From Squalus acanthias (taxonomy: Eukaryota), in assembly GCA_030390025.1 (NCBI GenBank), contig CM059432.1:75022001-75086000 (forward strand): DNA of 64,000 bases. Direction: 5' to 3'. Below, piece by piece: positions 1 to 51,430 of this stretch. Below the pieces are notes generated by a model. That model was not told where the DNA came from. It did not search any database and saw only the letters and a program-made list of their open reading frames with translations. A program made the translations under genes and the position numbers. Position 1 is the stretch's first letter; every line of letters begins with the position of its first letter.

Positions 1-677
1 TGGAAAAGGATAGAGGGCTATGGATAGGACTTTAAATTAGTAAAATGGGGGAAGGGATCTGGTGAAAATAACATAAGCCTGAAGATAAAAGAAATAGGAG
101 ATGAGAGTAAAGGTCAGACTAAGGTAAAGAATAAGGGTAACATAAACGGTCGGGGAACAGATACAGTTGTAGAACATAAGTATAAAGTGACTTAAAAATA
201 AAGTGAGTGGAACAATTAATAAAAACAAATTAAAATTGCTGTGCACAGCATCCAAACTAAAATGGGGGACTGGAGGCAATAATCTGTAGTGAGGAGCCAG
301 ATGTAGTAGGGGATAGGGATAACTGAACCATGGCAAAATATAGAACAGGTCTGGCAGTTAAATATTGCAGGATAACACATATTTAGATAGGATAGGGAAG
401 GAAGAAGGGGAGAGGTGGTGTGGTAGCTGTACTAATTAGAGATAACAATGGCTGTAAAAAAAGGGACATAACTAACATTAAGATAGAAACAGAATCCATA
501 TGGATTGAGACAAAGGATAAGAAGGGATCAATCACGTTAATAGGAATATTCTACAGACCACCTAATAGTGGAAGGGAAGTGGAGGAAGAAATATCTAGGC
601 AAATCTGCAAAATGAGTAAAAGACATAGAATAATAATCTTGGGAGATTTCAACTACCCCCAAATAAACTGGCTAGAA
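1..677 (+). mobile_element. CR1 LINE fragment (AP-endonuclease region), left part of a copy split by the 678-3570 insertion
   Basis: ORF 420-683 contains ESIWIE, GIFYRPPNS and ILGDFNYPQINW, which are CR1 APE motifs. Confidence 0.85.
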
Positions 678-3570
678 TCATAGAATGATACAGTACAGAA
701 GAAAGCCATTCGGCCCATTGTGCCTGTGCCAGCTCTTTGGTAGAGCTATCCAATTAATCCCACTCTCCTGCTCTTTCCCCATATCACTGTAAATTTTTCC
801 CTTCAAGTATTTATCCAATTCCCTTTTGAATATTGCTATTGAATCTGCTTCCACCACCTTTTCAGGCAGTGGCATTTCAGATCACAACAACTCGCTGTGT
901 AAAAAAACATTTCCTCGTGTCACCTCTGGTTCTTTTGCCAATCACCTTAAATCTGTGTCCTCTGGTTACCGACCCTTCTGCCAGTGGAAACAGTTTCTCC
1001 TTATTTACTCTATCATGACTTTGAACACCTCTATTAAATCTCCCATTAACCTTCTTTGCTCCAAGGAGACAACCCTAGTCATATACACATCAACCGCACT
1101 ACCCTTATCAACCCTCTCCGTTACTTCATCAAAGAACTCGATCAAGTTAGTCAAACATGATTTGCCTTTAACAAATCCGTGCTGACTTTCATTTAGTAGC
1201 CCATACTTATCCAAATGCCAATTCATTTTGTCCCGGATTATTTCCTCACTATTGACGTTAGGCTGACTGGCCTATAGTTGCTGGGTTTATCCCTCTCCCC
1301 TGTTTTTAAACAGGGGTGTAACATTTGCAATCCTCCCGTCACTGGCACTACCCCCATATCCAAGGAGGATTAGAATATTGTGGCCAGAAGCCTCTGCAAT
1401 TTCCACCCATACTTCCCTCAGTAACCTAGGATGCACCCCATCCAGACCAAGTGACTTTTCTACTTTGAGGACTGCCAACCATTTAAATAACTCTTCTTTA
1501 TCTATTTTTATCCTATCCAATTTTGCTACTGCCTCTCCCTTTACTGCTACATTGGCAGCATCCACTTCTCCAGTGAAGACAGATGCAAAGTACTCATTTA
1601 GTATCTCAGCCATGCCCTCTGCCTACATAGAATATCTCCTTTTTGGTCTCTAATCAGCCCCACTCTTCCTTTTACTATTTATGTGTTTATAAAAAAACTT
1701 TTGGGCTCCCTTTTATGTTAGCTGCTAATCTATTCTCATTTTCTCTTTTTTAGATCTCCTCTGTACTTTCTATGTTCAGCTTAGTTCTCTACTGTATTAT
1801 GAACCATACAATTGTCATAAGCCTCCTTTTTCTGTCTCATTTTAACTCTATATCTTTAGTCATCCAGGGAGCTCCAAGCTTTGGATGTCCTTCCTTTCTC
1901 ATGGGAATATGTCTACTCTGTACCTGAACCATCTCCTCCTTGAAGGCCTCCAATTTGTTCAATTACTGTTTTGCCTACCAATTTTTGATTCCAGTCCACC
2001 TGGGCCAGATCCCTTTTCAACTCACTGAAGTTAGCCCTCCTCCAGTAAATATTTTTAGGCTTGATTGTACCATGTCCTTTTCCATAACTATCCTAAACCG
2101 AATGATATTATGATTCCCCAAATGCTCTCCCACTGAAACATGCTCCACTTGTCCCAGTTCATTGCCCAGAACTAGATCCAGCACTACCTCCTTCCTCATT
2201 GGGCTGGAAACACACAGATCAGGAAAGTTCTCATACATATTTCAGGAATTCCTCCCCTTCTTTGCCTTTACACTGTTACTATCCCAGTCTATAATAAGAT
2301 AATTGAAGTCCCCCATTATCACTACTCTGTAGCTGTTGCATCTTTCTGTAATGCCCGCATATTTGCTCCTCTATCTCCTTCCCACTATTTGCTGGCCTAT
2401 AGTATATACCCAGTAGCATAATAGCTCCTCTATTGTTCCTTAATTCTAACCAAATAGATTCTGACTTTGACCCCTCAACTACATCATCCCTCTCCAGTGC
2501 TATAACAGTTTCTTTGATCAGTACTGCCACCCCCTCCTCCTTTTAATCCTTCCCCATCTTTCCTTAATACCTTGTAGCCAGGAATATTAAGTTCCCAACT
2601 CTCCCCTTCTTTGAGCCAGGTCTCTGTTATTGCCACTATATCATAGTCCCATGTGATAACTTGCGCCTGCAGCTCACCAACCTTATTTAACTACATATAT
2701 TCACTCCAAGCCCATCTTAGACTGCCTCGTATTTTGCCCCTGTCTGATCCCTCCTATTTCTGAACTATTCTTTACTCTAGTGCTATTTGCCTCTCCCAGT
2801 CCTCTGTGCACCTTGTTTCTCCTCTCTAATGTTTCATCCTGTTGTTCATCCCCCAGCCAAATTAATTTAAACAGTACTAGTTAACCTTCCCGTGAGGACA
2901 TTGGTTCCAGCTCTGTTGACGTGCAACCTATCCACCTTGAACAGGTCCCTCCTGCCCCAGAACTGGTCCCAATGCCTCAGGAATCTGAAGCTCTCCCTCC
3001 AGCATCATTTCTCCAGCCACACGTTAACCTGTTTTATCCTACTATTCCTATACTCACTAGCACGTAGCTCCAGGAGTAATCCAGAGATTACTACCTTTGA
3101 GGTCCTGCTTTTTAACTTCCTCCCTAGCTCCTGAAACTCTGACTGCAGGACATCAACGCGTTTCCTTTCTATGTCATTGGATCCCACACAGACCACAACT
3201 TCTGGCTGTTTCCCTTCTCCCCTCAAAATGTTCTGCATCCTCTCAGTGATGTCCTTTACCCTAGCACCAGGGAGGCAACACACCAAGCGGGACGCACAAC
3301 GGTGGTTGCAGAAATGCCTGTCTATCCCGACTATCGAATCCCCACAGTGCAGTGGATGTGCTCTAGACTGCACTCCCCACTGTGTCGTCACTCTCACTGG
3401 TATTCAGCGCTGAAAACCGGTTTGAGAGTGGCACACTCCCGGAGAATTCCTGCACTGCCTGCCTCTTCCCACCCTGCCAGATGACCACCCACTTACTATT
3501 CTCCTGAACTCTCTATAGCTGCGAGGTGACCAACTCCTGGAACATGCACTCCAGGAAATTCTCAGCCTCC
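678..3570 (-). mobile_element. Decayed CR1 LINE with ORF1 esterase, APE, internally deleted RT and 3' tail
   Basis: ORF1 SGNH motifs GDSIV, CCLPGARVKD and VGSND (3005-3397); APE GIYYRP; QHGFVKGKSCLTNL; CR1 3' tail at 678-730. Confidence 0.9.
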
Positions 3571-16227: not shown

Positions 16228-18900
16228 AATTTAAATTCAGTTAATTAAATAAATCTGGAATAAAAAGCTAGTACCAGTAATGGTGACCATGAAACTATTG
16301 GATTGTCGTAAAAACCCATCTGGTTCACTAATGTCCTTCAGGGAAGGAAATCTGCTGTCCTTACCTGGTCTGGCCTATATGTGACTCCAGACCCACAGCA
16401 TGTGTTTGACTCTTAACTGCCCTCTGAAATGACCTAGCAAGCCACTCAGTTGTAACAAACCGCTACGAAAAACAATAAGAATAAAACTGGACGGACCACC
16501 CAGCATCGACCATGACAACTGCACACTCAGCCCAGTCGACCCTGCAGAGTCCTCCTCACTAACATCTGGGGACTTGTGCCAAAATTGGGAGAGCTGTCCC
16601 ACAGACTAGTCAAGCAACAGCCTGACATAGTCATACTCACAGAATCATACCTTTCAGCCAATGTCCCAAACTCCTCCATCACCATTCCTGGGTATGTCCT
16701 GTCCCACCGGCAGGACCGACCCACCAGGGGTGGCGGCACAGTGGTACACAGTCGGGAGGGAGTGGCCCTGGGAGTCCTCAACATTAACTACAGACCCCAT
16801 GAAGTCTATAATTCAGGTCAAGCATGGGCAAGGAAACCTCCTGCTGATTACCACCTACTGCCCTCCCTCAGCTGATGAATCAGTACTCCTCCATGTTGAA
16901 CACCACTTGGAAGAAGCACTGAGAGTAGCAAGGGCACAGAATGTATTCTGAGTGGGGGACTTCAATGTCCATCACCAAGAGTGGCTCGGTAGCACCACTA
17001 CTGACCGAGCTGGCTGAGTCCAGAAGGACAAAAGTTGCCAGACTGGGCCTGCGGCAGGTGGTGAGAGAACCAACACGAGGGAAAAACATACTTGACCTTG
17101 TCCTCACCAATCTGCTGGTCGCAGATTCATCTATCCATGGCAGCAGTGGTAGCAGTGACCAGTGCACAGTCATTGTGGAGACGAAGTCCCTTCTACACCC
17201 TCCATCGTGTTGTGTGGCACTACCACTGTGCTAAATGGGATGATGTGGAGATGCCGGTGTTGGACTGGGGTGGACAAATGTGAGAAGTCGCACAACACCA
17301 GGTTATAGTCCAACAGCTTTATTTGAAATCACAAGCTTTCGGAGCGCTGCTCAGAACAGATCCAGCAACTCAAAACTGGGCATCCATGAGGCGCTGTGAG
17401 CTATCAGCAGCAGCAGAATTGTATTCCACTGCAATCTGTAACCTCATGGCCCGGCATATCCCTCACTCTACCACTACCATCAAGCCAGGGGACCAACCTT
17501 GGTTCAATAAGGAGTGTAGAAGAGCATGCCAGGAGCAGCACCTTGCATACCTAAAAATGAGCTGCCAACCTGGGGAAGCTGCAACACAGGACTACATGCA
17601 TGCTAAACAGCAGATGCAGCATGCTATAGTAAGAGCCAAGCGATTCCACAATCAACGGATCAGATCTAAGCTCTGCTGTCCTGCCACATCCAGTTGTGAA
17701 TGGTGGTGGACAATTTAACAACTAACGTGAGGAGGAGGATCCAAGAATATTCACATCCACAATGATGGCAGAGCCCAGCACGCAAGTGCAAAAGACAAGG
17801 CTGAAGCGTTTGCAACCATCTTCAGCCAGAAGTGCCAAGTGGATGATCCATATTGGCCTCCTCCTGAGGTTCCCACCATCATAGAAGTCAGTCTTCAGCC
17901 AATTTAATTCACTTAACGTGTTATTAAGAAACGGCTGAGCGCACTGGATACAGCAAAGACGATGGGTCGCGACAGCAACCCAGCTATCGTGCTGAAGACT
18001 TGTGCTCGAGAACTAGCTGTGCCTCTAGCCAAGCTGTTTCAGTACAGCTACAACACTGGCATCTACACGACAATGTGGAAAACTGCCCAGGTATGTCCTG
18101 TCCACAAAAATCAGAACAAATCCAATCCAGCCAATTACCGCCCCATCAGTCTACTCTCAATCATCAGCAAAGTGATGGAAGGTGTTATCGACAGTGCTAT
18201 CAAGCGGCACTTACTCACCAATAACCTGTTCACTGATGCCCAGTTTGGGTTCCGCCAAGACCACTCGGCTCCAGACCTCATTACAGCCTTGGTCCAAACA
18301 TGGACAAAAGAGCTGAATTCCAGAGACGAGGTGAGAGTGACTGCCCTTGACACCAAGGCAGCATTTGGCCAAGTGTGGTATCAAGTAGCCCTAGTAAAAT
18401 TGAAGTCTATGGGAATCAGGGGGAAAGCTCTCCACTGGTTGGAGTCATACCTAGCACAAAGGAAGATGGTTGTGGTTGTTGGACGTCAATCATCTCATCC
18501 CCAGGACATCGCTGCAGGAGTTCCTCAGGGCAGTGTCTGAAGCCCAACCATCTTCAGCAGTTTTATCAATGACCTTCTCTCCATCATAAGGTCAGAAGTG
18601 GGGATGCTCGCTGATGATTGCGCAGTGTTCAGTTCAGTTCCATTCGCAACTCCTCACATAATGAAGCAGTCCGTGCCCGCATGCAGCAAGACCTGGACGA
18701 CATTCAGGCTTGGGCTGATAAGTGGCAAGTAACATTCACACAACACAAGTCCCAGGCAATGACTATCTCCAACAAGTGAGAGTCTAACCACCGCCCCTTG
18801 ACATTCAACGGCATTACCACTGCCGAATCCCCCACCAGCAACATCCTGGGGGGTCACCATTGACCAGAAACTTAACTGGACCAGCCACATAAATACTGTG
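16228..18900 (+). mobile_element. Family-B LINE (single APE-RT ORF, tentatively CR1-Zenon-like), head truncated, interrupted at 18900
   Basis: NIWGLVPKLGEL..PDIVILTES, NYRPISLLS, QFGFR and GVPQGSV. Ends in gccacataaatactgtg, which is where 33372 restarts. Confidence 0.9.
17240..17352 (-). mobile_element. 113-bp Penelope (family 1) terminal fragment inserted in the family-B LINE
   Basis: The reverse complement matches 22140-22254, including the tail gtccaccccagtccaac.ccggcatc.ccacatcat; the host LINE resumes at agaacagatc. Confidence 0.88.
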
Positions 18901-20703
18901 CTCAGAAGAATTTCCTTGACCAGTATGTTCTTGGCCCAACTAGGAAGGAGGCATTGCTGGATCTGGTGCTGGGGAATGAGGTGGGCCAGGTCGAGCAAGT
19001 GTCTGTGGGAGAACACTTGGGTACGAGTGATCACCATATCATAAGGTTTAGATTAGCAATGGAGAGGAGCAAGGAACAATCAAGAGTGGAACTTCTAAAC
19101 TGGAATAGGGCTAACTTCAATGGGATGCAAAAGGATCTAGCCAGGGTAAAATGGAATCAAAGACCGACAGGAAAAACTGTAACAGAACAATGGGTGATCT
19201 TTAAGGAGCAGATGTTCCAGGTACAGGCTAGGTACAATCCAACAAGAGGGAAGGGTAAGGGAACCAAAGCAAGGGAGATAGAGAAGATGATGAAACAAAA
19301 AAAGGTGTATGATGCATGTCAGGTGAATTCTTCAAGGGAGAACCAGACCAAATACAGTAAGTTGAGAGGGGATGTGAAGATGAAAATAAGATTGGCAAAG
19401 AGAGAATATGAGAGCAGCATGGTGGTTAACATAAAAGGGAACCCAAAAATCTTCTACCGGCATGTAAACAGTAAGCGGGTAGTAAGAGGCGGGGTGGGGC
19501 CTATTAGGGACAAAGAAGGTGATCTATGCTTAGAGGCGCAGGGCAAGGCTAGAATACTCAATGTGTACTTTGTATCGGTGTTTACTAAGGAGGTGGATGC
19601 TGACAAAATATCAGTAGAAGTGGAAAAGGTAGAAGCAATGGAAGGGGTGAAAATTGATAGACAGGATGTACTAGAAAGGCTGGGTATGCTTAGAGTGGAT
19701 AAGTCATCTGGTCCAGATGGCTTGCATCCCAGGTTGCTAAGGGAATTGGGGGAGGAGATAGCAGAAGGGCTTGTCATAATTTTCCAATCTTCCCTAGATG
19801 CAGGGGAGGCGGCTGAGGATTGGAAAATGGCAAATGTGACACCGTTGTTCAAGAAAGGGTGCAAGGACAATCCTAGTAACTACAGGCCGGTCAGTTTAAC
19901 ATCAGTGGTGGGTAAAGATTTAGAAACAATAATCAAGGAAAAAATTAACGGGCACTTGGAGAGGTTTAAGCTAATTAAGGAGAGCCAACACGGATTTGTA
20001 AAAGGCAGACGGTGTTTGACTAATCTAATTGAATTTTTTGATGAAGTAACAGGGAGGATTGATGAAGGAAATGTTGTCTACATGGATTTTAGGAAGGCGT
20101 TTGACAAAGTACCACATAGAAGGCTGGTTAACAAAATTGAGGCTCATGGAATAGGTGGGTCAGTGGCAGCTTGGATAAGGAATTGGCTTAAGGACAGAAA
20201 ACAGCGAGTTGCGGTAAATGGCTGTTTTTCAGACTGGAGAATGGTAGACAGTGGTGTTCCCCAAGGGTCAGTGCTGGGGTCACTGCTTTTTTTGATATAT
20301 ATAAATGACCTGGATATTGGAATACAGAGTAGAATTTCTAAATTTGCCGATGACACCAAACTTGGGGGTGTTGCAAACAGTGAGAATGATACCAATCGAC
20401 TGCAACAGGACACAGAAAGGCTAGCAGAATGGGCAGACAAGTGGCAGATGGAATTTAATACAGAGAAGTGCGAGATGATGCATTCTGGCAGAAGGAACAG
20501 GGAGAGGCAATATACACTTAATGGCACAGTTTTAAAGAGTGTGCAGGGACAGAGGGACCTGGGAGTTAATGTGCATAGGTCCCCGAAGGTGGCAGGACAT
20601 ACTGAGAGAGTGGTTAGCAAAGCATATGGGATCTTGGGCTTCATAAATAGAAAAATGAGAAGTCGCACAACACCAGGTTATAGTCCAACAGATTTATTTA
20701 ATT

Positions 20704-20741
20704 TTACAAGCTTTCGGAGCTGTCGCTCCTTCGTCAGGTAA
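20704..20741 (-). ncRNA. Minimal type I hammerhead ribozyme in the Penelope pseudo-LTR
   Basis: The minus strand reads UUAC-CUGACGA-A-GGAGC-GACA-GCUCC-GAAA-GCUU-GUAA: full core, 4-bp stem I, 5-bp stem II and palindromic stem III (AAGCUU). Confidence 0.85.
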
Positions 20742-20984
20742 GTTAGCAATGAGAGAATCTCCCAGAATTCACAATTTAAACCCAGACAAAATCTATTCAC
20801 ATTATTCGCTACAACAAAGAGCACAGCCAAGACAATGAGATGTGTCCCAGGGGGTCCAACGTGTCAAACCACCTGCTGGCTGCATATCCTGTCAATTTGT
20901 GTTCTTGTGTTAGCCTTTTTAAAAAAGAAAAACCAAAAAAAAAAAAAAAAAAAACCACCTGGAAAGACCGGCCATGATGTCAAG

Positions 20985-22017
20985 TCACGTTCTGTATCGT
21001 GACATGAACCCGATATCGCGATTGAGGCCATCCTCATGAGTGCGGAACTTGGCTATCAGTTTCTGCTCTATGATTTTGCGCTGTCATGTATCTCGAAGGC
21101 CGCCTTGGAGAACGCTTACCCGCAGATCCGAGGCTGAATGCCCCTGGCTGCTGAAGTGTTCCCCGACTGGGAGGCAACCCTCCTGCCTGGCGATTGTTGC
21201 GCGGTGTCCGTTCATACGTTGTCTCAGTGTCTGCATGGTCTCGCCGATGTACCATGCTCTGGAGCATCCTTTACTGCAACGTATCAGGTAGACAACGTTG
21301 GCCGAGTCACATGAGTATGTACCGTGTACCTGGTGGGTAGTGTCCTCACGTGTAATGATGGTATCTGTGTCCATGATTTGGCATGTCTTGCAGAGGTTGC
21401 CGTGGCAGGGTTGTGTGGTGTCTTGGTTGCTGTTCTCCTGAAAGATGGGTAATCTGCTGCGAACGATGGTACTTTTGAGGTTAGGCGGCTGCTTGAAGGC
21501 GAGTAGTGGAGGCGTGGGGATGGCCTTAGCAAGGTGTTCGTCGTCATCGATGACATGTTGAAGGCTGCGAAGAACATGGCGTAGTTTTTCCGCTCCGGGG
21601 AAGTACTGGACGACGTAGGGTACTCTGTTGGTTGTGTCCCGTGTTCGTCTTCTGAGGAGGTCTATGCGGTTTTTCGCTGTGGCCCGTCGGAACTGTCGAT
21701 CGACGAGTCGAGCGTCATATCCCGTTCTTACGAGAGCGTCTTTCAGTGTCCGTAGGTGTCCATCGCGTTCCTCCTCGTCTGAGCAGATCCTGTGTATTCG
21801 CAGGGCTGGTCCATAGGGGATGGCTTCTTTAACGTGGTTAGGGTGGAAGCTGGAGAAGTGGAGCATCGTGAGGTTGTCCGTGGGCTTGCGGTAGAGTGAA
21901 GTGCTGAGGCGTCCGTCTTTGATGGAGATTCGTGTGTCCAAGAATGAAACCGATTCTGAGGAGTAGTCCATGGTGAGTTTGATGGTGGGATGGAACCTGT
22001 TGATGCTATCGTGTAGT
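20985..22017 (-). pseudogene. Penelope polyprotein C-terminus (RT thumb plus GIY-YIG endonuclease), one premature stop
   Basis: FHPTIKLT, SFLDT, LYRKPTD, CxxxxCxxC, VVYLIRC..WYIGET..RMNGHR..PVGEHF. After the TGA at 21084-21086 the frame continues QRKIIEQKLIAKFRTHEDGLN to a stop at 20985-20987. Confidence 0.93.
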
Positions 22018-22127
22018 CCTGGGACACATCTCATTGTCTTGGCTGTGCTCTTTGTTGTAGCGAATAATGTGAATAGATTTTGTCTGGGTTTAAATTGTGA
22101 ATTCTGGGAGATTCTCTCATTGCTAAC

Positions 22128-22165
22128 TTACCTGACGAAGGAGCGACAGCTCCGAAAGCTTGTAA
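22128..22165 (+). ncRNA. Minimal type I hammerhead ribozyme (inverted copy)
   Basis: ttac ctgacga a ggagc gaca gctcc gaaa gctt gtaa; predicted cleavage after CUU at 22161. Confidence 0.85.
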
Positions 22166-22875
22166 AATTAAATAAATCTGTTGGACTATAACCTGGTGTT
22201 GTGCGACTTCTCATTTTTGTCCACCCCAGTCCAACGCCGGCATCGCCACATCATGACCTTCATAAATAGAGGTATTGAGTACAAAAGTAGAGAAGTTATG
22301 CTGAACCTTTATAAAGCGCTGGTTAGGCCACAACTGGAGTACTGCATCCAGTTCTGGTCACCACACTTTAGGAAGGACGTGAAGGCCCTTGAGAGGGTGC
22401 AGAGGAGATTTACCAGAATGGTTCCGAGAATGGGGGATCTTGGTTACAAGGATAGGTTGGAGAAGCTGGATTTGTTTTCATTAGAGCAAAAGAGGTTGAG
22501 GGGTGAATTGATAGAGGTGTACAAGATTATGACGGGTTTGGATAGGCTAGACGGGGAAAGGCTGTTCCCACTAGTTGATGGTACAAGGACTAGGGGACAC
22601 AGATTTAAGGTTTTGGGCAAGAGATACAAGGGGGACGTGAGGAAAAACTTTTTTACGCAGCGAGTGGTGAGGACCTGGAACTCGCTGCCGACGGAAGTGG
22701 TGGAAGGGGAGACACTCAATGTTTTCAAGGGGAGACTGGATAGGCACTTGAGGGAAATAAACTTGCAGGGCTACGGGGATAGAGCGGGGGAATGGGACTG
22801 ACTGGATTGCTCTACAGAGAGCTGGCACGGACTTGATAGGCCAAATGGCCTCCTTCTGTGCCGTTATGACTCGAT

Positions 22876-27034: not shown

Positions 27035-30000
27035 TGATCGATGCTCAACGCCATGTATCGCCACATGCATGCTCTCGGCCTCTCTCTTCAGCAGCACCGA
27101 CTCACTCTATCTCAAAGCTGTCCTGGACCGCAGTTCCATTTCATCCTTCGCCTCATCCGGCGCTTTAACAAAAAACTTTTTTTTTCTTCCTTTCAGGTGT
27201 CAAGGATCACAAGCTTCAACAACTGTTGGACACCAACGCCCCTCCGGAACCTTCTTGCCCATCACTTACCTCTGACCCCATTCCTTCTTCTAATCTCACC
27301 CCCCTGCTGTGTGTTCACTATCCCCTCTGACCTTCCCCTCTCTGAACCCGAACGATTAGTCCTCAGCAAAGGCCTGAGCTTCATCCCCTTACGCACCACC
27401 ATCTCAATGAATTTTGAGCTCGGCACAACGTTGAGCTCTTTTTCCGTGACCTTTGTTTCTGTGCCCACTTCTTTGGTAAGGAGTCTTCTCCCCACATAGC
27501 TGACCCCTTCTCCCATTTTCAGAATTCTCGTTCTACCTGGACCCCCCTCCCTCTGGCCTCTTACCCTCTCTAGATCTTTCCACTGCGAACTGCCGGCGTG
27601 ACATCAGCCATCTCAATTTTTTTTTATTCGTTTATGGGATCTGGGCGTCGCTGGCAAGGCCAGCATTTATTGCCCATCCCTAATTGCCCTCGAGAAGGTG
27701 GTGGTGAGCCGCCTTCTTGAACCGCTGTAGTCGTGTGGTGAAGGTACTCCCACAGTGCTGTTAGGTAGGGGGTTCCTGGATTTTGACCCAGCGACAATGA
27801 AGGATCGGCGATATACTTCTAAGTCAGGATGGTGTGTGACATGGAGGGGAACTTGGAGGTGGTGGTGTTCCCATGCGCCTGCTGCCCTTGTCCTTCTAGG
27901 TGGAAGAGGTCACGGGTTTGGGAGGTGCTGTCGAAGCAGCCTTGGTAAGTTGCTGCAGTGTATCTTGTAGATGGTACACACTACAACCACGGTATGCCGG
28001 TGGTGGAGGAAGTGAATGTTTAAGGTGGTGGATGGGATGCCAATCAAGTGGGCTGCTTTGTCCTGGATGATGTCGAGCTTCTTGAGTGTTGTTGGAGCTG
28101 CACTCATCCAGGCAAGTGGACAGTATTCCATCACTCTCCTTACTTGTGCCTTGTAGATGGTGGAAAGGCTTTGGGGAGTCAGGAGGCGAGACACTCGCCG
28201 CAGAATACTTAGCCTCTGACCTGCTCTTGTTGCCACAGTATTTATGTGGCTGGTCCAGTTAGGTTTCTGGTCAATGGTGACCCTCAGGATGTTGATGGTG
28301 GGGGATGTGGCGATGGTAATACCGTTGAATGTCATGGGGAGGTGGTTAGACTCTCGTTTGTTGGAGGTAGCCATTGCCTGGCGCTTCTGTCGCGCGAATG
28401 CTACCTGCCACTTATCAGGCCAAGCCTGAACATCGTCCAGGTCTTGTTGCATGCAGGCATGGACTGCTTCATTATCTGAGGAGTTGTGAATGGTGCTGAA
28501 CACTGCAGTCATGAGCGAACATCCCCATTTCTGACTTTATGTTGGAGGGAAGGTCATTGATGAAGCAGCTGAAGATTGTTGGGCCTAGGACACTGCCCTG
28601 AGGAACTCCTGCAGCGATGTCCTGGGGCTGTGATGATTGACCTTCAACCACCACAACCATCTTCATTTGTGCTAGGTGTGACTCCAGCCAGTGGAGCATT
28701 TTCCCCCCGATTCCCAATGACTTCAGTTTTACTAGGGCTCCTTTGATGCCACACTCGGTCAAATGCTGCCTTGATGTCAAGGGCAGTCACTCTCACCTCA
28801 CCTCTGGAATTCAGCTCCTTTGTCCATGTTTGGACCAAGGCTGTAATGAGGTCGGGAGCAGAGTGGTCTTGGCGGAACCCAAACTGGGCATCAGTGAGCA
28901 GGCTATTGGTGAGCAAGTGCCGCTTGATAGCACTGTCGAGACACCTTCCATCACTTTGCTGATGATTGAGAGTAGACTGATGGGGCAGTAATTGGCCGGG
29001 TTGGATTTGTCCTGCTTTTTGTGGACAGGACATACCTGGGCAGTTTTCCACATTGTCGGATAGATGCCAGTGTTGTAGCTGTACTGGAACAGCTTGGCTA
29101 GAGGCACAGCTAGTTCTGGAGCACAATAGCCGGGATGTTGTTGGGGCCCATAGCCTTTGCTGTATCCAGTGCGCTCAGCCATTTCTTGATATCACGTGGA
29201 GTGAATCGAATTGGCTGAAGACTGGCGTCTGTGATGGTGGGGACCTCAGGAGTAGGCCGATATGGATCATCCACTCAGCACTTCTGGCTGAAGATGGTTG
29301 CAAACGCTTCAGCTTTGTCTTTTGCACTCACGTGCTGGGCTCCACCATCATAGAGGATGGGGATATTCATGGAGCCTCCTCCTCACGTTAGTTGTTTAAT
29401 GGTCCACCACCATTCACGACTGGATGTGGCAGGACTGCAGAGCTTTGATCTGATCTGTTGTTTGTGGGATCGCTTAGCCCTGTCTATAGCATGCTTTTTC
29501 CGCTTTTTAGTATGCATGTAGTCCTGTGTTGCAGCTTCCCCAGGTTGGCATCTCATTTTTAGGTACGCCTGGTGCTGCTCCTGGCATGCTCTTCTGCACT
29601 ACTCATTGAACCAGGGTTGGTCCCCTGGCTTGATGGTAATGGTAAAGTGAGGGATATGCCGGGCCATGAGGTTACAGATTGTGGTGGAATACAATTCTGC
29701 TGCTGCTGATGGCCCACAGTGCCTCATGGATGCCCAGTTTTGAGCTGCTAGATCTGTTCTGAATCTATTCCATTTAGCATGGTGGTAGTGCCACACAACA
29801 CGAAGGAGGGTGTCCTCCGTGTGAAGACGGGACTTCGTCTCCACAATGACTGTGCGGTGGTCACTGCTACTAATACTGTCATGGACAGATGCATCTGCGA
29901 CAGGTGGATTGGTGAGGACGAGGTCAAGTAGGTTTTTCCCTCGTGTTGGTTCTCTCACTGTCGCAGGCCCAGACTGGCAGTTATATCCTTCAGGACTCGG

Positions 30001-30615
30001 CCAGCTTGGTCAGTAGTGGTGATGGACACTGAAGTCCTCCACCCAGAGTACATTCTGTGCCCTTGCTACTCTCAGTGCTTCTTCCAAGTGGTGTTCAACA
30101 TGGAGGATTACTGATTCATCAGCTGAGGGAGGGCGGTAGGTGGTAATTAGCAGGATATTTCCTTGCCTATGCTTGACCTGAAGCCATGAGATTTCATGGG
30201 GTCCGGAGTCAATGTTGAGCACTCCCAGGGCCACTTCTTCCCGACTGTATACCACTGTGCTGCCACCCCTGGTGGGTCTGTCCTGCCGGTGGGATAGGAC
30301 ATACTCAGGGATGGTAATGGAGGAGTTTGGGACATTGGTTGAAAGGCATGATTCTGTGAGTATGACTATGTCAGGCTGTTGCTTGACTGGTCTGTGGGAC
30401 AGCTCTCCCAATTTTGGCACAAGTCCCCAGATGTTGGTGAGGAGGACTCTGCAGGGTCGATTGGGCTGGGTGTTTCGTTGCTGTGTGCATAGACAGTGCC
30501 GAGGTTGATGCCGGGTGGTCCGTCCGGTTTCATTCTTATTATTGTGTTTCGTAGCGGTTTGTTACAACTGAGTGGCTTGCTAGGTCATTTCAGAGGGCAG
30601 TTAAGAGTCAACCAC

Positions 30616-31109
30616 TCGAGGAACAGCACCTCATCTTTCGTTTAGGCACGCTACAGCCCTCTGGACTCAATATCGAGTTCAACAATTTTAGATCATAACC
30701 TCAGCTCCAATCACATTTATATTTTATTTTATCCACCCTTTTATTTGTCCCCCCCACCTTTTTTTTCCTCCTAGAAGCTGGCAGCTGTCCTTCATTCTGC
30801 CAGTAGATTTCACACTTCATTCAGCCTTAATCTGTCACATTAACACCACCTCTAGCCTTGCATATCTCTTAATGTCTCTTAATGTCTCTTCATCTCCTCC
30901 TTTGTTCCTTTATCCCCTCCCCCTTTTCCCAGCTTTACCCTGGCCTTAAATCTATTTGATTTCCAGCTCTTCCCAGTTCTGATGAAAGGTCATCGACCTG
31001 AAACGTCAACTCTCTTTCTCTCTCCACGGATGCTGCCTGGCCTGCTGAGTTTTTCCAGCGTTTTCTGTTGTTATTTCGGATTTCCAGCATCTGCAGTATT
31101 TTGCTATCG
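30616..31109 (+). mobile_element. Penelope family-2-type 3' fragment nested in the family-B 5' UTR
   Basis: 14-bp TSD taagagtcaaccac at 30602-30615 and 31110-31123; encodes EEQHLIFRLGTLQPSGLNIEFNNFRS-stop; pseudo-LTR similar to 33170-33340. Confidence 0.92.
30975..31011 (+). ncRNA. Minimal type I hammerhead ribozyme with intact core
   Basis: agtt ctgatga a aggtc atc gacct gaaa cgtc aact: stem I AGUU/AACU, stem II AGGUC/GACCU, palindromic ACGU, GUC cleavage triplet ending at 31007. Confidence 0.88.
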
Positions 31110-33203
31110 TAAGAGTCAACCACGCTGCTGTGGGTCTGGAGTCACATATCGGCCAGACCAGGTAAGGACAGCAGATTTCCTTCCCTAAAGGACATTAGTG
31201 AACCAGATGGGTTTTTACGACAATCCGATAGTTTCATGGTCACCATTACTGATACTAGCTTTTTATTCCAGATTTATTTAATTAACTGAATTTAAATTCC
31301 CCAGCTGCGGTGGTGGGATTTAAACTCACGTCTCTGGATCACTAGCCCAGTGACATTACCACTACGCTACCGTTCCCGTTCCCTCTGCTCCCCTCACCTC
31401 ACTCCAACCTACCTCCCTCTGAACTTGCAGCAATCCGTTCTCTCAGTTCCAACCCCAACATCGTCATTAAACCTGCTGACAAGGGTGGCACTCTTGTTTG
31501 GCGAACCGTTTTCTACCTTGCGGAGGCTGAACGCCAACTCTGATACCTCCTCCTATCTCCCCCTCGACCATGACCCCAGCACCGAACATCAACCCATCGT
31601 TTCCAAGACTGCCACTGTCCTCATCTCCTCTGGAGATCTTCCCTCCACAGCCGCCAACCTCAGTTCCCCAACCCTGCACAGCCCACTTCTACCTCCTTCC
31701 AAAAATCCACAAACAGGACTGCCCTGGTAGACGCATCGTTTCAGCCTGTTCTTGCCCCACGGAACTGATTTCTTCCTATCTTGACACTATTTTTTCTCCC
31801 CTCGTCCAGTCTCTTACCACCTACATCTGCGACTCTTCCGACGCCCTCCGCCACTTTAACAGTTTCCAGTTTCCTGGCCCCAACCGTCTCATTTTCACTA
31901 TGGACATCCAATCCCTCTACACCTCCATCACCCACCAGGATGTCCCGAGGGCGCTCCGCTTCTTCCTTGAACAGAGGCCCAACCAGTCCCCATCCACCAT
32001 AACCCTCCTCCGCCTGGCTGACCTTGTTCTCACATTGCACAACTTCTCCTTTGACTCCACTCACTTCCTCCAAATTAAAGGTGTTGCTATGGGAGCCCGC
32101 ATGTTCCGAGCTATGCCTGTCTTTTCGTGGGATATGTGAACATTCTTTATTCCAGTTCTACTCGGGTCCCCTCCCTCACTTTTTTTCCCCCCGGTACATT
32201 GATGTCTGTATCGGTGCCGTTTCCTGCTCTATCCCTGAACTAGAAAATTTCATTCATTATGCTTCCAATTTCCACCCTTCCCTCACCTTCACATGGTCCA
32301 TCTCCAACTTTTCCCTTCCCTTCCTCAACTTCTCTGTCTCCTTTTCTGGCGATAGGCTATCGAAAACATCCACTATAAGCCCACTAACTCCCACAACTAC
32401 ACTGCCTCCTAATCCGCTTCCTGTAAGGACTCTATTCCATACTCCCAGTTGCTCAGTCTCCTTTGCATCTGTTCGGATGATGCCACTTTCCAAACTAGTG
32501 CTTCCAATATGTCTTCCTTTTTTCCTCAAATCGAAGATTCCCCTCTACCGTGCTTGACATGGCCCTAGACTGTGTCGGTTCCATTTCCCGCACTTCTGCT
32601 CTCATCCCTTCCCATCCCTTCCAGAATCACAATAGCCTCCACATTCAATGGATCATCCTCCGCCATTTTCGCCACCGCATGATCCCACCACCAAACACAT
32701 CTTCCCCTCCCCTCCCCTTTCAGCATTCAGAAAGGACCGCTCCCTCCGCAACACCCTGGTCCACTCCTCAATCACCCCCAACACCCACTCCCCTTCCCAT
32801 GGCACCTTCCCGTGCAAGCGCAGGAGATGCAACACCTGCCCTTTTACCTTCTCCGTTCCCACCGTCCAGGGCCCAAAACACTCCTTCCAGGTGGAACAGC
32901 GAGTTACTTGTACTTCGTGCAATTTAGTATACTGTATTCGCTGCTCACAATGCGGTCTCCTCTACATTGTAGAAACCAACGCAGATTGGGTGACCGCTTT
33001 GCAGAACACCTCAATTCAGTCCGTAAGCGTGACCCCGAGCTACCGGTCACTTCAATTCTCTGTTCCACTCCCACTCTGACCGCTCTGTCATTTAGTCACT
33101 CCTGCCTTCCACCCTATCACAGATCTTCCCTTTTGTTCTTTCCTCCCCTCCCCTTTCCCTGCCCCCACACTTGGTTAAAATCTGATATATCTCTAACTTT
33201 TTC

Positions 33204-33371: not shown

Positions 33372-33996
33372 GCCACATAAATACTGTGGCAACAAGAGCA
33401 GGTCAGAGGCTAGGTATTCTGCGGTGAGTGTCTCACCTCCTAACTCCCCAAAGCCTTTCCACCATCTACAAGGCACAAGTCAGGAGTGTGATGGAATACT
33501 CTCCACTTGCCTGGATGAGTGCAGCTCCAACAACACTCAAGAAGCTCGACACCATCCAGGACAAAGCAGCCCACTTGATTGGCACCCCATCCACCACCTT
33601 AAAGATTCACTCCCTCCACCACCGGCGTACCGTGGCTGCAGTGTGTACCATCTACAAGATGCACTGCAGTAACTCGCCAAGGCTTCTCCGGCAGCACCTC
33701 CCAAACCCGCAACCTCTTCCACCTAGAAGGACAAGGGCAGCAGACACATGGGAACACCACCACCTCCAAGTCACACACCATCCTGACTTAGAAGTATATT
33801 GCCGATCCTTCATCATCGCTGGGTCAAAATCCTGGAACTCCCTCCCTAACAGCACTGTGGGAGTACCTTCACCACACGGACTGCAGCGGTTCAAGGCGGC
33901 GGCTCACCACCACCTTCTCAAGGGCAGTTAGGGATGGGCAATAAATGCTGGCCTTGCCAGCGACGCCCACATCCCATATACGAATAATTAAAAAAA
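33372..33996 (+). mobile_element. Family-B LINE 3' portion, apparent continuation of 16228-18900
   Basis: Starts with the 17-mer that ends the 16228-18900 copy; YKAQVRSVMEYSPLAW..WNSLP; A-rich tail. Confidence 0.92.
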
Positions 33997-43686: not shown

Positions 43687-44020
43687 AACAATATTTAAAT
43701 ATATATAAGTTGGCAAAAAAAACAAGTATCTAAGTTAATCATAATTCATTTAATTGATTTTTTTTTTTTTTTTTAAAAGGAAGCCCTGATAGAGATACTG
43801 TTCAATATTAACTGTTTAGAAAAACTATAAAAAATTTAAGAAATAATAAAAAGATTAACTGGGCCAGCCATATCAACAACATGGCTACAAGATCAATGCA
43901 AAGACAGAATACTCCGATGAGTGGCTCACCTCCTGACTCCGCAATGCATCTCCACCATCTACATGGCTCAAGATGAGTGTGCTGAAGACTCACCACTTGC
44001 CTAGGTGGGTGTGGTTGTGA

Positions 44021-44475
44021 CAACACTCAAGAAGCTCAACACCATCAAGGACAAAGCAGTCCACTTGGGCACCACTGCCACTAGACTCAATACCCACTCC
44101 CTCTATCACTGGCACGCTGTGGCTGCATTATGTTCCATCTACAGGATGCACTGCAGCAATTCACTAAACTTACTTTGACAACAACTTCTAACCCTGTGAC
44201 CTCTACCACCAAAGAGGGTAAAAGCAGCAAGATCATGGGAACACCATTACTTCCAAGCCATACTATCCGAACTTAGACATATAATCACTGTTTCTTAGTC
44301 ACTGGGTCAAAATCAGGGAATTCCCCATCAAACATCATTGTGGGAGCATCATCACCACAAGGATTGCAGTGGTTCTGGGAGAAGAGCCAGCACCACCACC
44401 TCAGGGCAATTAGGAATGGGCAATAAATGCAGCCTTGCCAATGTCACCCACATCCCAAGACAATTTAAAAAAAAT
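44021..44475 (+). mobile_element. Old family-B LINE 3' fragment
   Basis: caacactcaagaagctc..ggacaaagcag..gggcaataaatgc..cacatccc plus an A tail; homologous to 33530-33996. Confidence 0.85.
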
Positions 44476-48686: not shown

Positions 48687-51430
48687 GGGAACGGTAGAGT
48701 AGTGGTAATGTCACTGGGCTAGTAATCCAGAGACGTGAGTTCAAATCCCAGCTGGGGAATTTAAATTCAATTAAATAAATCTGGAATAAAAAGCTAGTAA
48801 TGGGAAGGAAATCTGCCATCCTTACCTGGTCTGGCATTTATGTGACTCCAGACCCACAGCAATGTGGTTGACTCTTAACTGCCCTCTGAAATGGCCTAGC
48901 AAGCCACTCAGTTGTAACAAACCGCTACGAAACAAAATAATAAAAATGAAACCGGACGGACCACCCGGCATCGACATCGGCTACGAACATGGCAAATGCA
49001 CACCCAGCACAGTCAACCCTGCAAAGTCTTCCTCACCAACATCTGGGAGAGCTGTCCCACAGACTAGTCAAGCAACAGCCTGACATAGTCATACTCACAG
49101 AATCATACCTTTCAGCCAATGACCTAAACTCCTCCATCACCAGGGGTGGCGGCACGGTAGTATACAGTCGGGAAGGAGTGGCCCTGGGAGTCCTCAACAA
49201 TGACTCCGTACCCCATGAAGTCTCATGGCTTCAGGTCAAGCATGGGCAAGGAAACCTCCTGCTGATTACCACCTACTGCCCTCCCTCAGCTGATGAATCA
49301 GTACTCCTCCATGTTGAATACCACTTGGAAGAAGCACTGAGAGTAGCAAGGGCACAGAATATACTCTGGGTGGGGGACTTCAATGTTCATCACCAAGAGT
49401 GGCGCGGTAGCACCACTGGCTGAGCTGGATGAGTACTGAAGGACATAGCTACCAGACTGGGCCTGCGGCAGGTGGTGAGAGAACCAACACGAGGGAAAAA
49501 CATACTTGACCTTGTCCTCACCATTCTACCTGTCGCAAATACATCTGTCCATGACAGTATTGGTAGCAGTGACCACCGCACAGTCATTGTGGAGATGAAG
49601 TCCCCTCTTCACACCGAGGACACTGTGGCGTGTGACACTACCACTGTGCTAAATGGGATAGATTCAGAACAGATCTAACAGCTCAAAACTGGGCATCCAT
49701 GAGGCGCTGTGGGCCATCAGCAGCAGCAGAATTGTATTCCACCACAATCTGTAACTTCATGGCCCGGCATATCCCTCACTCTACCATTACCATCAAGCCA
49801 GGGGACCAAACCTCGTGCAATAAGGAGTGTAGAAGAGCATGCCAGGAGCAGCACCAGGCGTGCCTAAAAATGAGGTGCCAACCTGGGGAAGCTACAACAC
49901 AGGACTACATGCATGCTAAAAAGCGGAAGCAGCATGCTATAGACAGGGCTAACGGATCAGATCAAAGCTCTGCAGTCCTGCCACATCCAGTCGTGAATGG
50001 TGGTGGACCATTAAACAACGAACGGGAGGAGGCGGCTCCATGAATATCCCCGTCCTCAATGATGGTGGAGCCCAGCACGCAAGTGCAAAAGACAAGGCTG
50101 AAGTGATTGCAACCATCTTCAGCCAGAAGTGCTGAGTGGATGATCCATGTCGGCCTCCTCCTCCTGAAGTCCCCACCATCACAGGAGCCAGTCTTCAGCC
50201 AATTCGATTCACTCCACGTGATATCAAGAAACGTCTGCACGCACTGGATACAGCAAAGGCTATGGGCCTGACAACATCCCGGCTATCGTGCTGAAGACTT
50301 GTGCTCCAGAACTAGCCGCACCTCTAGCCAAGCTGTTCCACTGGCATCTATCAGACAATGTGGAAAACTGCCCAGGTATGTCCTGTCCACAAAAAGCAGG
50401 ACAAATCCAATCCGGCCAATTACCGTCCCATCAGTCTACTCTCAATCATCAGCAAAGTGATGGAAGGTGTCATTGACAGTGCTATCAAGCGGCACTTACT
50501 CACCAATAACCTGCTCACTGATGCCCAGTTTGGGTTCCGCCAAGACCACTTGGCTCCCGACCTCATTACAGCCTTGGTCCAAACATGGACAAAGGAGCTG
50601 AATTCCAGAGGTGAGAGGAGAGTGACTGCCCTTGACATCAAGGCAGCATTTGACCGAGTGTGGCATCAAGGAGCCCTAGTAAAACTGAAGTCAATGGGAA
50701 TCGGGGGGGAAACTCTCCACTGGCTGGAGTCATACCTAGCACAAAGGAAGATGGTTGTGGTGATTGAATGTCAATCATCACAGCCCCAGGATATCACTGC
50801 AGGAGTTCCTCAGGGCAGTGTCCTCGGCCCAACCATCTTCAGCTACTTCATCAATGACCTTCCCTCTAACATAAGGTCAGAAATGGGGATGTTCGCTGAT
50901 GACTGCAGTGTTCAGTGCCATTCACAACTTCTCAGATAATGAAGCAGTCCATGCCCGCATGCAACAAGACCTGGACGATGTTCAGGTTTGGGCTGATAAG
51001 TGGCAGGTAACATTTGCACCACAGAAGTGCCAGCCATTGACTATCTCCAACAAGTGAGAGTCTAACCACCGCCCCTTGACATTCAATGGCATTACCATCG
51101 CCAAATCCCTCACCATCAACATCCTGGGGGTCACCATTGACCAGAAACTTAACCGGACCAGCCACATAAATACTGTGGCAACAAGAGCAGGTCAGAGGCT
51201 AGGTATTCTGTGGCGAGTGTCTCACCTCCTGACTCCCCAACGCCTTTCTACCATCTACAAGGCACAAGTAAGGAGTGTGATGGAATACTCTCCACTTGCC
51301 TGGATGAGTGCAGTTCCAACAACACTCAAGAAGCTCGACACCACCCAGGATAAAGCAGCCCGCTTGATTGGCACCCCATCTACCACCTTAAACATTCACT
51401 CCCTCCACCACCGGCGTACCGTGGCTGCAG
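48687..51430 (+). mobile_element. Family-B LINE with tRNA-like head, 3'-truncated
   Basis: Head gggaacggtagagtagtggtaatgtcactgggctagtaatccagagacgtgagttcaaatccca; APE motifs, then RT LDIKAAFDRVWH, GVPQGSVLGP and MFADD. Confidence 0.92.
48695..48747 (+). promoter_or_regulatory. Putative Pol III type-2 internal promoter (A box and B box) at the family-B 5' end
   Basis: A-box-like TAGAGTAGTGG at 48695-48705 (TAGCGTAGTGG in the 31.3-kb copy) and B box GTTCAAATC at 48739-48747, with tRNA-like spacing. Confidence 0.7.

Follow-up and report, generated by a model that had tools for sequence, protein, structure and literature searches.

Structure of the locus

We analysed a 64,000-nucleotide stretch of the genome of the shark Squalus acanthias (assembly GCA_030390025.1, contig CM059432.1, positions 75,022,001 to 75,086,000 of the forward strand; hereafter the window), in which a decayed, full-length copy of an elasmobranch Zenon long interspersed nuclear element (LINE) lies on the minus strand at 27617..31377. 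The copy measures 3.3 kb without a nested insert; an initial annotation made from the sequence alone had set its end at 31383, which we correct to 31377. It opens with a transfer RNA (tRNA)-derived head (31300..31377), assigned by Rfam model RF00005 and by collinearity with host tRNA-Thr(AGT), and the start of the element corresponds to the tRNA +1 position. Within the head are an RNA polymerase III (Pol III) A box, TAGCGTAGTGG (31359..31369), which is the majority form among 67 copies; an anticodon-like arm with AGT (31334..31350), seen in the sequence and by Rfam and present only once in this copy; and a Pol III B box (31316..31327) with one mutation relative to the family form GAGTTCAAATCC. 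A 5' untranslated region (UTR) of about 250 nt follows (30562..31299), split by the nested insert and common to short derivatives of the element. The single open reading frame (ORF), encoding an endonuclease and a reverse transcriptase (APE-RT), occupies 27680..30561 and is broken in this copy; in the family majority it runs 969 codons from stop to stop. A conserved AUG at 30531..30533 is out of frame with it and opens a 44-codon overlapping frame. The 3' UTR (27617..27679) contains a stem-loop, with a fold z of -3.2 measured on the copy L404, and AATAAA, followed by A9. All of these features lie on the minus strand.

The nested insertion (30616..31109, 494 bp, strand not assigned) is a host-type repeat flanked by a 14-bp target duplication at 30602-30615 and 31110-31123. 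In BLAST it is 67-92% identical to the surrounding host repeat, in which the whole copy is embedded. We call this repeat Penelope-like after the initial annotation; Pfam returned no family for fragments of the nested insert and the host repeat.

An abundant family under selection for its protein

The majority sequence of the family, built from 88 loci, is 3301 bases long and comprises a head of about 95 nt, a UTR to position 329, one 969-codon frame (330-3236), a short 3' UTR and a short A tail. The window copy is 94% identical to it over positions 276-3301 and 90% over positions 1-289. Of the earlier versions of the majority, one had a 2-base deletion from the window copy and one an artefact at 580-650 from the seed copy. 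The arm counts, private-mutation counts, host-retroelement control and T-neighbour test reported below were computed on the version with the artefact; the codon tests were repeated with a new seed and the natural 815-codon frame, and their outcome was unchanged.

These data confirm the element as an abundant, A-tailed LINE of 3.3 kb with a single ORF for endonuclease and reverse transcriptase. A near-full-length query drew 25,582 first-look candidates from the 3.7-Gb genome, a figure that is not a copy number. Pfam finds both domains (APE, RVT_1) in natural copies, whose frames reach 815 codons (L016), 778 codons (L404) and 863 codons with one stop (L091). As initially annotated, there is no ORF1, and the 969-codon frame of the majority leaves no room for one. 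A search of the PDB with the protein returned distant L1 and R2 proteins only. Non-CpG variants shared by at least 12% of copies divide into 23 non-synonymous and 34 synonymous changes, against 4398 and 1896 among private variants (p 7e-6), so the master copies have been selected for their protein and the ORF is under purifying selection. A frameshifted subfamily was considered and rejected; there were no linked variants, and the queries had selected for it.

The poly(A) tail of the initial annotation is present but short, mostly 5-10 A. Among the 57 tails listed most are short, often with extra T before the A; more than one T precedes the A in 23 of 46 classified tails (11 of the 57 were unclassified), and internal TA5 sites are unchanged. 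The T-before-A form does not increase with age (rho 0.22 with identity, p 0.06), and in the genome's DNA in general TnAm outnumbers AmTn by 101 to 21. Such tails are either a trace of U-ended RNA or the result of a general conversion of A to T tracts in this genome. At several 3' ends (e.g. L100, L108, L407) several T, up to T11, are followed by A at a roughly constant total length. We saw no consistent target duplication flanking the copies of the family. At the 5' flanks of L375, L377, L384-L386, L389-L392 and L397, a C at -1, often as TAAC or TTAC, is common before the first G, and may reflect a preference for certain targets or the addition of bases.

A tRNA-derived head is a fixed part of the family

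The initial annotation described a cloverleaf-like tRNA head. The A and B boxes and the collinearity with a tRNA stand, whereas a cloverleaf is not predicted at minimum free energy, and the head sequence it quoted as one copy is a composite of two. Aligned end to end, the window head matches host tRNA-Thr(AGT) with z 5.8, compared with z 2.9-4.1 for Lys and Cys tRNAs, the sole other isotypes compared. The Thr call is partly circular, since the pattern used to retrieve the tRNA-Thr itself included the AGT loop. Neither the window nor four headed copies yielded a tRNA with ARAGORN, Rfam found none in five young copies with a doubled arm, and folding of the head gave no cloverleaf (z -0.96 and +0.34) and no acceptor stem. 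The tRNA assignment therefore rests on the alignment and the boxes. The anticodon-like arm is doubled in 67 of 71 copies, and both headed copies in the window lack the doubling.

With the first 215 bases of one copy as query, we examined 30 of the 40 scored matches, 29 of them besides the query itself. These 29 copies start at +1 in 26 cases, +2 in two and +6 in one, and their flanks are unrelated. In 24 of them the sequence continues from the head for at least 1.1 kb into the ORF, interrupted by an insertion in two cases; one reaches position 633, three end at 259-383 and one is a head-plus-tail derivative. Conversely, among 20 copies picked for a long reverse transcriptase frame (of 150 listed), four extend to +1, the other 16 break off at various points, and none has an alternative head. 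By eye, the published Zenon-1 consensuses of five elasmobranchs begin with a head that has A and B boxes, and three of the five have a perfect GGTTCGAATCC box. The four other sharks and rays have headed starts free of T4 in the first 400 bases of their published consensuses; hagfish and coelacanth Zenons have no such head and several runs of four or more T (T4+) over the same length. Across species the second arm of the head differs in stem sequence yet still pairs, and sharks and rays have retained the boxes although their spacers differ. Together these comparisons show that the head is a fixed part of the family and not a chance join.

Relatives outside the elasmobranchs were sought in 160 loci from metagenomes and metagenome-assembled genomes (MAGs), among which there was no headed or terminator-free one. 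A regular expression for the A and B boxes had 0 matches upstream of 139 long ORFs of these loci, ARAGORN found 0 tRNAs in the 45 loci it was run on, and BLAST of the UTR and tail against them gave no meaningful match. Short motifs recur in Zenon leaders from outside the elasmobranchs. Those of L124 (350-470), L203 (860-990) and the coelacanth consensus LatCha_Zenon-1, the last from the supplement of PMC13343379, have in common GCCCGAAC ... GAGGCTGC, and a further motif, GAGGCCACTGC, is common to L123 (700-790) and the coelacanth leader. They may be a conserved RNA structure, for example a ribozyme, that was replaced by the tRNA head in sharks; Rfam returned nothing on these motifs.

Terminator-like motifs are depleted from the sense strand

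Terminator-like motifs, canonical and non-canonical, were defined as in PMC3141230; several features were tried in the tests below, and their p values are uncorrected. The claim that the window copy lacks sense T4+ runs is borne out: the plus strand is free of A4+ from 27170 to 31701, nested insert included. The family majority likewise has no sense T4, and the T6 at 20034 and T7 at 20287 in neighbouring CR1 elements are as annotated. BLAST pieces of 60 loci from the same genome (131,629 bases, two copies counted twice) contain 24 T4+ runs, against 651 A4+, 353 G4+ and 387 C4+.

Compared with base shuffles, the whole element has 0 T4+ runs vs 3.8 expected (p 0.018), 7 T3+ runs vs 19.7 (p 0.0003) and 1 terminator-like motif of any kind vs 11.7 (p 0.0003). 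On the antisense strand such motifs number 41 vs 39.3 expected, and A runs are normal. Synonymous codon shuffling of the ORF gives 5 T3+ runs vs 11.2 (p 0.005) and 1 motif vs 5.7 (p 0.01), and dinucleotide shuffling 1 motif vs 6.4 (p 0.006). The scarcity of terminator-like motifs thus holds against composition-, dinucleotide- and codon-matched nulls, as the initial annotation anticipated. The absence of T4 alone is weak; significance comes from the T3 runs and the terminator-like motifs. A wobble T that would complete a TTT across codons occurs at 2 of 44 positions, compared with 171 of 665 elsewhere (p 0.0008), and the effect does not depend on frame. Among private mutations to T, those that build TT or TTT keep pace with opportunity (827:778 and 243:200), and the depletion is not due to mutation bias.

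Three retroelements of the host served as controls, two families that we take to be CR1-like and the presumably Penelope-like repeat; their motifs are at 24/17, 27/21 and 38/35 observed over expected. For the relatives, 138 of the 160 loci had a frame of at least 450 codons and were used, and 22 were dropped. Their ORFs have a mean motif ratio of 0.99 and a minimum of 0.72, and none is free of T4; the ratio for L016 is 0.19. A distant LINE relative in a MAG record (L274, 2501-4534) has one T4 vs 8.5 expected, with ordinary T3 and no head seen. Many bacterial and archaeal MAG records (L203-L282) carry animal LINE ORFs, which points to host contamination. We found no relative on viral contigs.

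The ORF lacks an in-frame start

There is no in-frame AUG before the endonuclease; the first, at codon 283, lies past it. The first 400 bases of the majority contain nine AUGs. One of them, at family position 358, opens the 44-codon overlapping frame and does not share the frame of the ORF in 32 of 39 copies. By eye, it is also present in the Zenon-1 heads published for five species, and the ray consensus again has it out of frame. In five invertebrate-type relatives with a visible start, an ordinary AUG lies a short way ahead of the endonuclease. We considered an ACG at position 339, present in 39 of 53 copies, as the start and set it aside because the other four species have no ACG there. 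The ORF may be entered by a non-AUG start, by a -1 frameshift near the first endonuclease codons or by reinitiation.

Short derivatives share the head, UTR and tail

A search with an exact pattern that links the end of the UTR to the tail gave 159 matches, against 0 for the control; the junctions are of many kinds, and one of them recurs. Of six matches examined, two are complete 0.4-kb units of head, UTR and tail, and contigs from three other organisms span similar UTR-tail joints. With their many junctions, these short derivatives indicate mobilisation in trans. They have the short, non-coding form of a tRNA-derived short interspersed nuclear element (SINE); the 3.3-kb element has a selected ORF. 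Its head is of the tRNA-SINE (SINE2) kind, weakly so by Rfam score and clearly so when judged by the collinear alignment and the boxes seen in other species. The UTR may also resemble the Deu domain.

Proposed transcription by Pol III and its rivals

We propose that an ancestor of the shark and ray Zenons swapped its 5' leader for a tRNA-Thr-like, SINE-type head. TFIIIC would bind the internal A and B boxes, and Pol III would initiate at the first G and transcribe the whole 3.3-kb element, which it could read to the end because selection on master copies would have cleared the sense strand of T terminators, canonical and non-canonical alike. It would stop at a T run at or past the 3' end. The uncapped RNA would give rise to a few APE-RT molecules by unconventional translation, whether from a non-AUG start, by a -1 frameshift or by reinitiation from the conserved out-of-frame AUG. 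Bound to the 3' stem-loop, APE-RT would then carry out target-primed reverse transcription and so insert the RNA. Since the whole headed RNA would be inserted, each full-length copy would carry its own promoter, and an internal deletion would yield head-UTR-tail SINEs in one step. Pol III promoters can drive translated reporters, and taking a terminator out of the ORF helps, according to PMC8223928.

Several observations weigh against this proposal. Running a tRNA model on the head, as initially suggested, does give an Rfam match at 31312-31370, but at 26 bits (E 0.4) it is below the gathering score of 29, and the B box of the window copy departs from GGTTCGA. Among the fetched copies, none has the head and the whole ORF together. 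The lack of T4+ in the ORF is not significant against codon shuffles (0 vs 1.8, p 0.12), nor is that of T4 against dinucleotide shuffles (p 0.24); under the latter null T3+ runs are not significantly reduced (7 vs 10.5, p 0.11) and C4+ runs are also scarce (11 vs 18.4, p 0.013). TA is depleted as strongly as TT (0.66, 0.71). Private mutations that create T4 fall under opportunity (22 vs 37), and shared variants show no significant avoidance of T neighbours (13:4 vs 1475:1070, p 0.14). U-poor coding could predate the head, since the nearest relatives in the tree were compared as proteins, and the amphioxus relative is also poor in Phe. Under any polymerase, translation would be difficult to account for, given nine upstream AUGs and none in frame. 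The evidence for Pol III reading comes from sequence and is indirect.

The element might instead be a Pol II LINE with a secondary head or the relic of one. The tRNA piece would then be a fossil, or serve as an RNA element or TFIIIC-bound boundary, and Pol II-related causes would account for the U-poor sense strand: RNA stability, avoidance of nucleases or silencing, or cryptic polyadenylation. We consider this unlikely, although LINEs are held to be Pol II transcripts in the available text of PMC5786205, where RTE-1_DAn has a tRNA-like sequence and no claim of Pol III is attached to it, and although the joint depletion of TT and TA and the low number of C runs fit it. The depletion goes beyond dinucleotides and is strand-specific, and nothing similar is seen in the host retroelements or the 138 relatives. 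Under the dinucleotide null, pyrimidine tracts (8 vs 7.0) and splice-acceptor-like motifs (5 vs 5.9) are normal, AATAAA is kept twice in the 5' UTR, and across sharks and rays the boxes are conserved beside a varying spacer. A division of labour seems still less likely, in which Pol III supplies the RNA templates for copying, full-length and derivative, but this RNA is untranslated and the protein comes from capped Pol II read-through of a few copies. It would accommodate both the AUG problem and the mobilisation of derivatives in trans; however, read-through RNA would meet the same leader, and purifying selection among shared ORF variants is easiest to understand if the copied RNA encodes its own protein. 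Self-cleaving ribozymes process the RNA of R2 and RTE elements, and the head could by analogy with ribozymes of other ORF1-less LINEs be a processing signal at which RNase P cuts a host read-through transcript at +1. The sharp 5' end at the mature tRNA +1 position agrees with such a cut, but no acceptor stem or cloverleaf is predicted and terminator depletion over 3.3 kb would be left unexplained, and we regard this reading as very improbable.

Transcription by Pol III is, in our judgement, probably the best single explanation of the head and the depletion together. For the fuller account we have a slight leaning: that since before the split of sharks and rays an autonomous 3.3-kb retrotransposon would have been transcribed end to end by Pol III, its uncapped RNA translated despite the missing in-frame AUG, perhaps through a -1 frameshift after a start at the conserved upstream AUG, making it a natural Pol III coding unit that spawns SINEs by internal deletion. 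The observation behind the initial annotation is confirmed. Its interpretation, a captured Pol III promoter with terminators purged from the coding sequence, is partly supported: the sequence signs hold, and Pol III transcription itself is what we infer from them.

Other Zenon copies and repeats in the window

A second headed copy lies on the plus strand at 48687..51430. It has no sense T4+, as annotated, and its 3' end is cut at family position 2937, so that the head of the initial description stands and the tail does not. The plus-strand copy at 16228..18900 does belong to the family but is headless, covering positions 101-2684; its single sense T4, at 18561, is where it had been reported, and it carries a foreign insert of about 110 bp near 17242-17350. 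A 3' piece on the plus strand at 33372..33996, identified from its sequence, covers positions 2668-3301 and is probably the displaced end of the 16228 copy, the pairing being one that we infer. The two look like parts of one element, now about 14.5 kb distant from each other through later insertions, among them the Penelope-like host and the family's own copy at 27617. The piece annotated at 44021-44475 is an older 3' fragment of a related subfamily (43855..44475, plus strand, with the match ending at 44473) at 73% identity. Elsewhere in the window, within 20651-22254, an exact 201-bp inverted match joins 20651-20851 with 22018-22218, and the stretch between these repeats holds a 347-codon frame with no Pfam family.

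Comparison with known systems

The family itself has already been described, under the name elasmobranch Zenon (Stuart et al. 2026; PMC13343379), where it is represented by SquAca_Zenon-1, CarCar_Zenon-1, RhiTyp_Zenon-1, ScyCan_Zenon-1 and HypSab_Zenon-1. By eye, the first 400 bases of our majority, the part that was compared, are nearly identical to SquAca_Zenon-1. The published elements are ORF1-less, A-tailed and 3.2-3.3 kb long (SquAca_Zenon-1, 3314 bp), the same layout as ours. The head is present in those consensuses and undiscussed, and the T depletion and missing in-frame AUG go unmentioned in the main text of that paper, in which tRNA, polymerase, Pol III, promoter, terminator and start codon occur 0 times.

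The placement agrees with the initial guess of CR1-Zenon. Relatives of the protein, those of amphioxus, sponge, crab and butterfly among them, show 29-44% identity; most have 900-1100 residues and lie on contigs of 3-5 kb. In a FastTree phylogeny of 69 reverse transcriptase regions, built without Repbase or Dfam references, the element falls among proteins of amphioxus, sponge, crustacean and butterfly, with local support of 0.80-0.88 for the inner nodes, far from the two host CR1-like families. The butterfly protein P0091 matches, by eye, the Zenon-1_Hmel reverse transcriptase peptide and falls in the same clade. The element thus has the traits of Zenon, namely a reverse transcriptase apart from canonical CR1, no ORF1, a poly(A) end and a match to the published sequence; it lacks those of canonical vertebrate CR1 as defined in PMC13343379, an esterase ORF1 lineage and the absence of poly(A). 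A shark aldo-keto reductase gene model, P0085, contains about 210 residues of the Zenon ORF at 89% identity and is probably a mis-annotated intronic copy.

We found no report of a Pol III-driven LINE in the full-text literature searched, a coverage that excludes Repbase, Dfam and subscription journals. What appears to be new is the reading of a fixed tRNA promoter head, loss of terminator motifs and an AUG-less ORF. In the standard division a LINE is coding and transcribed by Pol II, and a SINE is non-coding and transcribed by Pol III (PMC5786205); Pol III is stated to make no coding RNA in normal biology (PMC8223928). If our reading is true, a long-lived, abundant vertebrate LINE would break this split: it would supply a natural example of an uncapped Pol III RNA being translated, and LINEs could become SINEs in one step. 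An element this compact (3.3 kb) that brings its own promoter would also be of interest for retrotransposon-based gene insertion. Direct tests are feasible through box mutants, a single inserted T run and Pol III occupancy.

Among known systems, lepidopteran Zenon (Wang et al. 2019; PMC6740152) is closest in form, at about 3.3 kb with a single ORF, a poly(A) end and internally deleted derivatives. Unlike the shark derivatives, however, its Persaeus SIDE is stated there to have no tRNA homology or Pol III promoter. SacSINE1 and the Deu-SINEs of cartilaginous fish (PMC5499810), compared by description only, resemble the short derivatives in their tRNA head, length of about 0.4-0.46 kb, LINE-type tail and occurrence in sharks and rays, but SacSINE1 is reported with a tail of the L2-2_CM type, unlike the Zenon derivative. 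RTE-1_DAn, a LINE with a tRNA-like sequence, is not named in the full-text literature searched outside PMC5786205. The tRNA-SINEs on bipartite LINEs described there (Kojima 2018) consist of a tRNA head, a LINE 5' UTR and a LINE tail, which is the anatomy of the shark derivatives. In the available text of that model, the head is added after the deletion, only RTE and Vingi are involved and the SINEs are unable to encode protein, whereas in shark Zenon the head sits on the coding element itself.

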